A DNA stretch of 64,000 bases, taken from Stylophora pistillata (Eukaryota). The stretch is taken from NCBI RefSeq assembly GCF_002571385.2, contig NW_019217784.1:1960863-2024862 (forward strand), written 5' to 3'. The notes beneath the pieces were generated by a model. That model was not told the origin of the DNA and did no database searches. It saw nothing but the letters and a program-made list of their open reading frames with translations. Each line of letters begins with the position of its first letter. The stretch's first letter is position 1. Made by a program: the position numbers and the translations under genes. Below are positions 11,201 to 17,200 of this stretch, piece by piece.

Positions 11201-14200
11201 GATAAAAAACGTTCAGACACTAAAGAAACAATCAAACAGAAAGGAGGAGAAACAGTGCGCGAGATACCAACGCAAACATAAGTCAGAAAAGAGAACATAG
11301 TAAAATAAGCAAAAATGACTAAAAGCATAGGATAAAAACGTCGCCCTATATATCGGAAGTGACTGCATCGCGAGACAAACGATAAATACTTAGGAACTCT
11401 TGTACTTTCAAACTGTCAATGTAAGGTTAAGTTTAAGTTTAAGTACTCACGTCAGAGATGTGATAGTCTCATCTGTGTTGTAATCCGCGGGGGATATGTT
11501 CACAAACATAAGAGTTTTTGCGTTACCACCTGTAGAAAAAAAAAAAAACAAAGAAAACAATAAAGCGCAGTTTTCACTTGAGTGTGGAAAGTAGGGCAGG
11601 ATACATCAGATTTTGCTGTATTTGGCTCTGCGATTGGTCAACAAGTCGCGACTTGGTCACCCGCGCTGCAAGTAGTTTACTTGGTCACATGCATTTTTCT
11701 TGCGCTTCAAGCAGAATGCTTGCTTTAACGCTGAGCTCTCGCTGGCTTCCTGGGCAGTAAGTGGCCGTTGTGTTTACATAAATCTTGAGTTAATACCACC
11801 AAATCAAAAAAAGTCCCCTAATAAGTCGATCCGTTTTGGTACAGAAACTGAACGCCATTGTTCTTAATATTCCTATGGCGTGATTCATTTGCATTTTTTT
11901 CGCCATCTTACCTAATGAGTCCTGCATGAGCAAGGTAAGTTTGTTGTTTCTGTAGGGAATAAACTGCTGCTCGCTGGATAAAGCCGAGATTACGTCTCCT
12001 AAGGCACTTAAACTCTTGTTAATCGATTGGGCTTCCTGTGGGACACATATCAAACATTCAGTTATTAAGCAAGTGAAAGGTAAAAAGAGGAAAGAAAAAA
12101 AGAACTTGGTGTAAAGCAGCGTTTGCGTTTATGAGATTCTACACCAAAGAAAAACGTAGAACATTCTTGCTGGGTCTCGAGAAAACTACCTTGAGCTGTT
12201 CGGCGCTTGCACCCGTTTTTGCAGCACGTTCAGATCCTGCCAAATCAACCAAGCTGATCTAAAAAATAAAAACACATAATTCACAATCTGTCACGCACGG
12301 AAGAACAAGGAAAATCGAGTATTAAGGGTACAAAAATCCGACACCACATTTTTTCATAGGAAAAACTGACAAGTGTATTAGACAGAAAAAAAAAATACAC
12401 AAAGAGACCCAGAAATTACTCACCTTTCCTTTGAGAACGGCACCAGAAGTTAAGTTTGTACTCTCAATAATAATTCCAAGGATAAGATGGGACCGAGAAC
12501 TCTCCGCATTCATTTCTAAATAAAAAAAGGAAAGTCAGTGGTGCGGCGAAAATAATCGATGACGAGGTATACGAAGAAGATTCTTGTAACCTTTATATTT
12601 GATTCAGGGGTGATCATGTTATAAGAAATTAGAAGGCAGTCACTCTTAGTGGTAAAAGGGATGTTTTCGTTTGAATCGGTGGGTCAATCTAACGCAGGGA
12701 AATTAAAATTTCTTTCTCACTTGTTGAAGAGACGTGTCTGTTTTCAGAGCCCTTCTCAAATATGGTCCAAAGCTCGTCCTTAGTAGCTGCCTCCATCATC
12801 ATCGATCCGTGTACAAACACAAGACCCTGGAAACCAAACCCGAGAGGATCGGCAAAGATCAGTTATTATGTGGAAGGAAAGCTTACGGTTTTAATTGATA
12901 AATGAGATTTTAGTTCAATCCTAATCAATTCATTTATTGTTTACCTTCTTGTCTTTCTTGATCTCGAGTTTTGCTGGCTATTCAAAGTGTTAAGGGTAAA
13001 AGATCACTTAAACTACAATTTAAATTAAGTGGTTTTTACGAATCATATAATTATATGATTGTCAAGGAAAACAAACGTTAAGCTCAATAATCAACCTCTG
13101 TCTGGGTAATCCACTCCCCTCCCCCGCTGGGAGTGAGGCGCCTCACTCCCAGAGTTCCACACGGCGCACTAGCCACAATTTGCTTTTTTGGACACGCACG
13201 ATGGACTTCATCAGTAGTCTGGCGAAGACACAGCTTGATTTAAGGATGTGAGTCTGCCACTGTTAAGTTCAGCGGTTACTTCTCGAAGAAGTATGAAGCA
13301 CCTGAAATCGAGGATAGCAAACACTAATAAAAGCACCCGACGTTTTAGATGTGACCAACAGTAACACAGAAACGCGACAATTCAAAGGATACTTCTTTAC
13401 CATGAGGTGCAAGTAAATCAATCAGCTTATCATTATATAACTCCATCATGTAACATGTAACCTTGAAAGAAAATTTGGACCTGAAAAAAAAAAAGTAAAT
13501 CCAGGCATAAGCGAGTAAATTCACGATCATTATTTTGTATCATGCCATGACGCTCTACATTCGCGAGTCGCGTCAAACGATAATAAAAATAATAATGACA
13601 GTAATTGTTCTTGCACATTCTCCATATGAATGCTCTCTAATGCTCCTTACAACACTTTGCGGGTGACTTTGGCCAAAGTGCATTGAGCAGTTTACAATAT
13701 ATGAAAGGGAATTTTGCAGGTGCCCCCCAACGACACAATTTTTGTAATCAAGGCCCGTAGACCACAATGCTTGTCGTTCTTTTTGTTGTTTCGTCAGTTT
13801 GTTTCGTTTCTTTTTTTGATGACATTCTATCGAAATGCGCCCAATCAATAGATCTTACTCACTTTTGTTCTTCCATCAATTTGAAGATGGCGTCCATTGC
13901 ACGTGGGGCGATGCCGGGTGACTTGAGCTCCTTGTCACCAATCATAGTGTAGGTGAGGAACGTTAAGGAATGTAATATTTGGAACAGTGATAATTTACAT
14001 TTTTTTCTTTCACCGGGAACAAACTCCAAGTAATGAACAGTTGACGAAATGCCCTTGGGATGTTTTCTTGTAGATATCTCAGGGTAAATTCCTTCATTTA
14101 TTCCCAGGACAAATAGCGTATTTCATCGACTGATAAGAGCCTACACTCTGGGCCAGAACATCATACCAGCGCTTTTCTCGAATAAGCACTCCCGCTCACT

Positions 14201-17200
14201 TTCTTAAATAGCAAGGATGCAAGGAAAATTAAGTGTCCTTTCAATAGCACCCCTCCTTTCAGCCGAAATTTGAAATGAGCGCCTAGGCGCCTATTCGATG
14301 AAAAACGGTATATCCCACGGCAGCATTCAATCAAAGATATGTTTGCAGAAAGGAACTATAGAATTTCAAAGGAAGCGTTACCCTCGAGTCTTTTAAACTG
14401 TATGGGTGGTCTTTGTTTGGAACTCGACTCTGAGTCATCGATGCTTAGCGTTCTGTTCTCGAATATAGGTGAGAAATATTCATTTTTAGAGTAAAGGATA
14501 TGTTTTACCAGAGCCCGTTTGTCCGTAAGCAAAGATGCACACATTGTAACCATCCACAGCTGACTGGATAAGATTCTGACATGAGAGAGAAAAGAATCAC
14601 GGTTAAAATGCAGGCGCTGAAGCGCTCGTAAGACGGACACACCAAGTAGTAGAAAACGCATCCGTCGCTCACTCACGCGATTGGCTAAGCGAGAAGGCGT
14701 CGCAGTGAGTGACAGAGATAATTTTGGACGTGTATAGGAGATTCGACTAATTGGATCTATCACAAAAACAACTAATGGCCTGAGATCACCACAAGACATG
14801 AAATACATTCTATTAACACAACGTACATGTTTTTTGAACCTGCGTTCAGTCCCCGCCTTTCAAGAGGTTTGGTTATTATCACTTTAAGTTCTCCTATGCT
14901 TCTCGTCAAGTGATATTTTCCTTTCTTCTCATTGGCCACTGAGACTACTTTGGTTTTGGTATCACGTCACTTAATCAAGAAACATCCTAACTTACATTTG
15001 TATCCTCAAACACTTTATCCTGGCCGTGATCAGGTGTAAATACGGCGTCATACTGGAAATCTTTTGGACCACGGCTGGTTTCCACGACAAGAGAGTACTC
15101 GTCAGGTGACTTGATCACTGAATGGTTGCCCTAAATTGTTACAAAACAACTCCCAGTCAACCCTTTACATCCTTAAGGCATATTCTCCATACTCTCCTCT
15201 ATACGTTGTCTGAGGTGCTCAGAGGGAGAATTTGTTTAAGAATCAGGAGCTGCTTTAGTTGGTGATCATTTCCTTTATTCTTATGACCTTCAAGCGTGAT
15301 TCAGGGGGGATATGTAAGGAGAATCTAGATGCTAGTAACTCTTAAAGGCCAAAGGGTTGAGAAATGTGGTAGCAAAGGACTAGTGTTAGGAGAGTATTGA
15401 CCAGAGGGTATTCTTCACGTCTAAATAAAAGATAGCTCTGGACATCAAGTTTAGCCGGAGAGATTCTAAGTAACAGCCGAAGAATGNNNNNNNNNNNNNN
15501 NNNNNNNNNNNNNNNNNNNNNNNNNNNNNNNNNNNNNNNNNNNNNNNNNNNNNNNNNNNNNNNNNNNNNNNNNNNNNNNNNNNNNNNNNNNNNNNNNNNN
15601 NNNNNNNNNNNNNNNNNNNNNNNNNNNNGAAAAGAATTAAAGCTAAAAAGCTTGTGGGGTCGTGTACTTAACAAAATAGTATCTAGTGAACTATTGATTA
15701 TACTAAAACACATTTCAAACTAAGAAAGAAACTATAATACAGTAAAACATTCAATTGTCCTCTCAACTTAAAAATCCTTGTAATCAGTTAATCTATTCCT
15801 AGCCGTCGAACCTGATAAACTAGTAAAAGTAAAGCTTGTGAAGTGATTATTTCTCATGAGTAGCCTCCTAAGATTCTTAAGGGCGAAACTACCTACATTT
15901 TTGAAATGATGGTTAACATAGTTCCATAGCACAAAACCTCTATATGCTAAAGAGTCCTTTAACAATCTAGTGTTGAATCTAGGTATGGTTATTGCTTCTT
16001 GGTCTCTTAGTGAATAGCTACATTCCCGCCTTATGAATATGCTATTAATTAGAGACTAAGGTAGTGAGACTTTACTTGCTCTATAAAAAAGGTTAACTAT
16101 TAAGTTAACTATCCTGAAGTTGTGGACAACGAGATCTAATGCAAACATGATAGCTACACAATGCTAACTAACAGAAAACTCTCTAATCTTACCCTTTCCA
16201 GCTCTGATCTGCTAAGCGGCCTTGCCCTGCAGTAAACTCGGATCTTTCCTTTCATATCTTCCACCATGTTGTAATACTTCTTACGCAAAATCTGCCGGGA
16301 GAAACGGGGTATGAACATACTTACTAAAACTCTAAAAAGCATATATTAAATGAATAAGGAAGCCTGTACAGCGCTTTGTTCTACTGAAAGCACGCAAGAA
16401 GCGGCTGGAACTGAAGAACCGAAGAATTGTAAAGGGACACCAAGACGCTAGATAGCAATAATGGCAGATTTGACGTAATCTTGTCGACGATTTTGACGGA
16501 ATTGACAAAACTTGTCAATCTGTGGAAATTTTGTCGAAAGTGACGATTCTGGTGAAATTTCGGCCGAGGTTGTTGACGAAATTATACCAGTAAATAGATA
16601 TGACCTGGCTAGAAGGGCCCCAAAACGTTGGCGAATTTGGCGAAAAAACGACGAATTTGGCGAAAGTGTGATTATAAGGAAATTTGGCTGAGGTTGTTGA
16701 CGAAGTTGTACGGTTTGACACAATTTCGTCAATCTAGTATTTTCGTTACTGTGTGCATTTCTGGCCATAAGTGATGTACTGTATCAGCCTCTCTCTCGCT
16801 TCTTTTTTTGAAACACGTGGAAAACCATTACGTCGTTTACGCAACACACTACTGGTTGCTATGAAGAGTGAGAGTTCAAATGTAACTGAAAAGCCACGTG
16901 CGCGTTTCGAAGAACAATGTTTAGCGTCTTACCCTCTCACTATTGTAATTGTCTGAAAGCGCCTTATTCTCCTCTCTGAGTTCTTTCACTTCCTTCGTCA
17001 ACTCATCCACCTTCTCTTGAGCGGCAAGACCTTCCTGTTATTGACAAAAATATCAAATCGGAGATTACTAAATATCCCGTTCGCGTTTTCAAAATCAATT
17101 TCGTTACTTAACTCAGATGAAGTACAAACTTGAAGCGTACCTGTGCTGCAGCTTCCAGTTTAGAAAGAGTGTCCTTATCTTTCTTACTGTCGGCTAACAG

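Follow-up and report, generated by a model that had tools for sequence, protein, structure and literature searches.

Introduction

Introns removed by the minor (U12-type) spliceosome have defining features that are listed, together with an optimum branch-to-3'-end distance of 11–13 nt, in PMC3584512, and they tend to cluster within single genes (PMC7367187). We describe an intron of this class in a 64,000-nt stretch of the stony coral Stylophora pistillata (contig NW_019217784.1 of assembly GCF_002571385.2, positions 1,960,863 to 2,024,862; hereafter the window), where it splits the P-loop of a kinesin-14 gene. The coral intron shares with the canonical U12-type AT-AC introns (PMC3584512, PMC7367187, PMC10639083) its donor, a branch site at 11 nt, an AC end and the lack of a long pyrimidine tract. 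Canonical minor introns are described as avoiding phase 0, and the coral AT-AC intron is in phase 2 and shares its gene with another U12 intron. Most minor introns catalogued in these sources are held to be ancient, whereas the coral intron was found only in stony corals among the copies sampled. Our analysis suggests that the intron is a further case of a well-known class, of which a candidate late gain is the unexpected part. Listings of open-access literature gave no earlier description of it, although intron databases such as MIDB and IAOD may already include it.

Reported gains of minor introns are few. One case is clear, reported by Lin et al. 2010 (PMC2831892) and identified as dipteran Zrsr2 in PMC6865273, where 55 candidate gains by gene age are also listed; mass gain in Physarum, with very little evidence of gain in general, is described in PMC10639083, and occasional gain by conversion is allowed for in PMC11347168. 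The coral intron resembles these reports in being a minor intron where relatives have none, and differs in that the candidate event is an AT-AC insertion and rests on indirect sampling. The explanation that we favor overall, and with good confidence, is an AT-AC intron that is spliced, is likely removed by the minor spliceosome and was likely inserted in the stony-coral lineage rather than inherited from early eukaryotes. Its least certain step is the late gain, for which we consider the case evenly balanced.

Results

The intron occupies positions 13953..14501 of the minus strand (549 nt, phase 2) and interrupts the codon of the P-loop Thr, which is residue 1383 of protein P0001 (1654 aa). 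The upstream exon (14502..14575, 74 nt, NLIQ...GSGK) reads GGT AAA AC up to 14502, and the downstream exon (13863..13952, 90 nt, YTMIG...EEQK) resumes as C TAC ACT ATG from 13952; both are supported by junction reads and by a 13-exon model, which forms a single open frame and whose spliced product is GSGKT|YTMIG, joined in phase 2. The 5' splice site ATATCCTTT (14493..14501) fits the U12-type consensus RTATCCTTT. The branch site TTCCTTAAC (13962..13970) places its second A 11 nt before the intron end, which reads TTCCTTAAC-GTTCCTC-AC, so that the AC acceptor lies at 13953..13954 and a long polypyrimidine tract is absent.

The joint 13952|14502 was present in all four raw RNA runs, which come from two studies and of which ~2–6% each was read, with 13, 23, 11 and 14 reads (61 in total) and 8, 6, 9 and 8 distinct read starts. 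At the detection thresholds used, these runs list no second joint for either intron end, and all seven listed joints agree with the exon model. The same joint appears in RNA contigs assembled for X2 and X3, which are two of three additional RNA-type runs and come from two further studies; the third, X1, gave low-depth unspliced pieces only. In the DNA-like run X18, a single contig (13547–15250) spans the intron, and the joined form is absent. Exon and intron share the ending AC, so the position of the joint can shift by 2 nt. The 549-nt AT-AC intron is thus excised at exactly these ends. A prior sequence-only reading had placed such an intron in the Thr codon of GSGKT and had proposed the RNA junction from 14502 to 13952 as its check; its coordinates and motifs proved exact, and neither GT-AG junction reads nor a failure to join the exons, either of which it had named as fatal, was found in the RNA data. 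Alternative junctions were considered within 40 nt of the two ends: none of the GT-AG pairs there preserves the reading frame, and the three GC-AG pairs that stay in frame all delete the P-loop.

One could ask whether the interruption reflects an error of assembly or annotation, or a broken gene, since the window contains assembly gaps and, close by, a 300-nt duplication with a single N. An independent DNA-like contig spans the intron, RNA joins the exons, and P0001 is intact and full-length, so this explanation is extremely improbable. As a separate observation, depth in the DNA-like run rises ~3.7-fold at 14158–14354, within the intron, pointing to a short repeat element.

The motifs by themselves carry little weight: paired donor and branch motifs occur twice in the 64 kb against a shuffle mean of 0.92, and 46 of 200 shuffles gave at least two. 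As the pair is not above chance, the proof lies in its position and in the RNA. One other site, GGGAAG|GTATCCTTA at 38011 on the plus strand, resembles a U12 donor; by eye, no convincing branch site or acceptor lies downstream of it.

The genome (G000) contains U11 (two copies), U12, U6atac and U4atac, all above Rfam cut-offs. Positions +4 to +9 of the donor pair with U11 of the same genome, at its 5' end, and with part of the genome's U6atac, and the branch site forms eight contiguous pairs with its own U12, leaving the A at −11 bulged. From established biochemistry, removal by the minor spliceosome is likely: U11 would pair with the donor and U12 with the branch site, after which U6atac would replace U11, and the 3' end would follow mainly from the 11-nt spacing to the branch A. 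There is reportedly a divergent AT-AC subclass, attributed to Wu and Krainer (1997), that is spliced by the major spliceosome, and its existence makes the same conceivable here. The donor and branch site are nonetheless exact U12 consensus and pair with the genome's own U11 and U12, nine of nine orthologs conserve these signals but not the interior, and a long polypyrimidine tract is absent, all of which makes major-spliceosome splicing highly improbable. Among the small nuclear RNA loci of the genome (L014:1501-1629, L015:1501-1628, L011 and L012), the two U11 copies exceed the cut-off, and a second, partial U12-like copy falls below it.

The same gene contains a second U12-type intron, overlooked in the sequence-only reading, two introns downstream of the first. 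This intron (12978..13392, minus strand, 415 nt, phase 0) is of the GT-AG subtype, with donor GTATCCTTT and branch site CCCTTAAC, the A of the latter at −13. Its junction (13392–12978) was covered by 9, 27, 16 and 7 reads in the four raw RNA runs, and it was kept in all seven ortholog contigs covering the site; no read-through scar of it was seen outside corals among the proteins fetched. It is followed by a 33-nt exon (12945..12977, minus strand; junction reads and exon model). The Pocillopora model P0327 is without these 11 aa (12945–12977), which may be an annotation error or rare skipping; no skipping of this exon was listed in the RNA reads.

Retention of the AT-AC intron gives GSGKTYPLL*, the product read earlier and reproduced here by translation, with the stop 16 nt inside the intron, and an unspliced message would be predicted to be degraded. 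One could envision the intron as a throttle, with minor splicing that is slow or sensitive to stress (heat, for instance) holding back the message and tuning motor output through the stop after the P-loop; a published model takes slow U12 splicing to be rate-limiting (PMC3584512). Intronic sense depth relative to exon depth was 0, 12.3, 0.8 and 0% for the AT-AC intron and 7.5, 0.8, 0.6 and 1.9% for the GT-AG U12 intron, with lower values for neighboring U2 introns (0.8, 0.5, 0 and 0%). However, the AT-AC signal comes from one of the four runs (X22) and from few read starts, likely duplicates, at a depth of only 15–30 reads, and each of the 14 introns tested would truncate the protein on retention. 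Since any of these 14, if retained, gives an in-frame stop inside the intron, location in the P-loop confers no special control. We thus consider such a throttle unlikely, and that the AT-AC intron is constitutive rather than a switch is the most likely reading. The earlier statement that a working motor needs minor splicing stands insofar as the gene would depend on the minor spliceosome, twice; the predicted truncation on retention that accompanied it is common to all the introns tested.

Comparison with other corals bears on both the splice sites and the age of the intron. A pattern scan for the P-loop followed by a U12 donor gave 10 metagenome matches, all of them this kinesin gene; the donor is conserved in all 10, as the pattern demands. 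In the coral ortholog contigs the intron lies at the same codon, with the branch A at −11 in nine of the nine that reach the next exon and the branch core CTTAAC in all nine with a 3' end. Ortholog introns range from 220 to 591 nt, and their interiors cannot be aligned between distant corals (~0.3 identity). The 3' end is AC in four of these nine contigs and AA in the other five (AA standing in place of the acceptor at 13953..13954); the nine contigs represent five distinct lineages, and with the window included the counts are four of six for AC and two of six for AA. Both ends occur among copies 93–96% identical in exon DNA. On the tree the AA end requires two changes, and a single AA clade was not rejected (p-AU 0.151). 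AT-AA is the commonest non-canonical end pair among minor introns (PMC10639083), and the five coral contigs have the same pair, as read from DNA homology; unlike those introns, AC and AA here alternate within one orthologous intron among coral lineages. If the 3' end is set by distance from the branch A, this would account for the use of AC and AA alike.

The intron also leaves its mark on gene models. Three of 10 named coral models are cut at it: Desmophyllum P0003 enters the intron and stops, and Oculina P0354 and one Porites model, P0353, start at a Met directly after it; the other seven are intact across it. AT-AC introns had been said to be rare and usually missed by gene predictors. The three cut models bear out part of the second statement and the seven correctly spliced ones do not, and the first was overstated, since Larue and Roy (PMC10639083) give a minor-intron density in Acropora higher than in most vertebrates and put ~26% of human minor introns in the AT-AC class.

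Outside corals, the range of the intron was surveyed with HMMER in reading frames predicted by gene callers on unspliced contigs, the query being the exon with its read-through. Among the best 150 hits, the residues after GKT/S were YT in 67, FT in 55, HT in 22 and YP, YS and WT in two each; both YP read-through frames are coral-like, and no frame had a stop directly after GKT. Fifteen frames picked by eye from the 150 were checked by hand. In each, both introns that flank the site in corals are present and the P-loop is unbroken, the frame having a non-homologous start at the coral upstream intron and ending or diverging exactly at the coral downstream intron. We used the hand-picked frames because the automatic "genomic" classes held false members (P0175, P0218, P0232, P0248, P0271, P0290 and P0294), which proved to be contiguous exons with variant motifs. 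By best match and short tree, the affinities of the 15 are bivalve-, gastropod-, echinoderm-, nemertean/annelid- and jellyfish-like, the last being P0258, which matches Rhopilema at 93% and lies on a 2.4-Mb contig; three form an unplaced group, two of them with very short upstream introns, and are possibly sponges. Fish-like (three), tunicate-like and plant-like frames have the upstream intron in common and lack the P-loop intron. Intron position in kinesin-C/KCBP orthologs had been put forward as one check: the codon is the same in other corals, whereas the P-loop is unbroken in the non-coral frames sampled, and this narrow range had gone unremarked. A paralog-wide ancient position was also considered and set aside: the pattern finds only this gene in G000, and the P-loop is uninterrupted in all five kinesin paralog loci parsed there (six fetched). 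Among 164 named proteins longer than 300 aa, P0003 alone carries the read-through scar, which says little because such sets favor intact motors.

The host gene (2227..31089, minus strand, start approximate) encodes a long N-terminal coiled coil and a C-terminal motor, as judged by P0001 mapping, PDB and Pfam. P0001 is transcript-derived and full-length, with GSGKTYTMIG, and matches exon 4 at 100%; exon 4 alone was uninformative against PDB. The nearest solved structures to its motor are those of plant KCBP, 1sdm and 3h4s (E ~1e-124), followed by KIFC3 (1e-79), and the motor is 73% identical to a sea-urchin calmodulin-binding C-terminal kinesin and 96% to that of Pocillopora. This last match and the coral labels of the sequencing runs that contain this DNA identify the host as a stony coral. 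P0001 aligns with 1sdm and 3h4s through the neck mimic, the regulatory helix and the acidic coil described for KCBP in PMC3689661; the last two coding exons (2461–2383 and 2283–2227, minus strand, within 2227..2461) encode these KCBP-like elements (neck mimic, regulatory helix, acidic tail). The coral gene thus has in common with KCBP/ZWICHEL and sea-urchin kinesin-C a C-terminal motor followed by these three elements. Plant KCBP differs in its N-terminal MyTH4-FERM tandem, for which P0001 has no Pfam hit, so the architecture is that of animal kinesin-C rather than plant-type KCBP. The spliced message encodes an intact KCBP/kinesin-C-type (kinesin-14) motor, and one such locus was seen in G000. 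According to PMC4574192, sea-urchin KinC is the only non-plant carrier of a KCBP-like C-terminal domain; in contrast, our protein matches show close motor relatives in many animal phyla. Kinesin-C/KCBP-type motors occur across a wide range of animals (sponges, cnidarians, molluscs, echinoderms, chordates and fish) and are mostly annotated as myosin-like or uncharacterized.

Several other features of the locus were observed. An 8,989-nt intron of the kinesin gene (2462–11450, minus strand) carries a fragmented antisense TPR-CHAT gene, recognized by Pfam TPR and CHAT, with open reading frames on the plus strand at 6329–7138, 7488–8348 and 8835–10040; because this intron measures only ~300–340 nt in the orthologs L008–L010, the insertion is lineage-specific. 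The same long intron contains a tandem array with a unit of ~60 nt (~10920–11200). The stretches 17501–17800 and 17893–18192 are 98% identical copies, each 300 nt or longer and spaced 392 nt apart; there is a single N at 17897, and they likely represent an assembly duplication at a contig join.

Discussion

Consistent with its motifs, the intron that divides the kinesin P-loop in S. pistillata is spliced as an AT-AC intron, and its distribution raises the question of when it arose. A single gain, on the branch of the corals or of the anthozoans, accounts for the pattern observed, and the alternative needs at least three to four exact losses. Because no intron of either class was found at the site in the sampled relatives, such a gain would have been an insertion rather than a U2-to-U12 conversion. 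We therefore propose, as a reading that could go either way, that an AT-AC intron was inserted de novo into the kinesin-C P-loop on the stony-coral branch, after the split from jellyfish and bilaterians, and that the base at its end has since switched between C and A among close relatives. The route is a matter of speculation: the intron may have entered by reverse splicing of a minor lariat, or may derive from duplication of an AC|AT site, which T-Y codons can supply.

Alternatively, the same U12 intron could be ancient, dating from early animals or before, and survive only in corals, having been removed precisely and each time separately from the stem of the bilaterians, from scyphozoans, from plants and from the unplaced lineage with short introns. 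Given that ancestral minor introns numbered in the hundreds, such a pattern would be expected in a few of them by chance. This history requires at least three to four exact losses while the animal frames keep both flanking introns, and no converted GT-AG intron was found at the codon in the 150 hits or in the five parsed paralogs. We regard an ancient origin as a serious contender that falls somewhat short of probable.

Several considerations weigh against a late insertion. Loss of minor introns is far commoner than gain according to PMC2831892 and PMC10639083, and it is by setting this published bias toward loss against the 55 candidate gains and the occasional gain by conversion that we arrive at an even division. 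The pattern scan detects only intron-bearing copies, because the pattern requires the donor, and in the survey of predicted frames any that extend into an intron are shorter and might be called less often, a bias against intron-bearing relatives. Taxa were assigned only by similarity of short frames to named proteins, with few columns and most forks open, and the genomic sample lacked sea anemones, octocorals, hydrozoans, placozoans and ctenophores. In the motor tree the cnidarians do not form one clade, although their unity was not rejected (p-AU 0.29), and given this tree hidden paralogy keeps some probability. Finally, the AT-AA ends in relatives are taken from DNA homology rather than from their own RNA.

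As an intron, that of the coral kinesin is ordinary, and it matters chiefly for annotation, given the proportion of named coral models that are cut at it. The AC and AA variants, lying in near-identical contexts, offer a natural experiment on the choice of a 3' end by the minor spliceosome. If the narrow range holds, the insertion would lie in an invariant motif between introns that have been kept, where it is easy to align and to date. A late insertion, if true, would provide a datable birth of a minor intron accompanied by natural variants of its end, and would make the disputed question of whether, and by what route, minor introns are still being gained directly testable.

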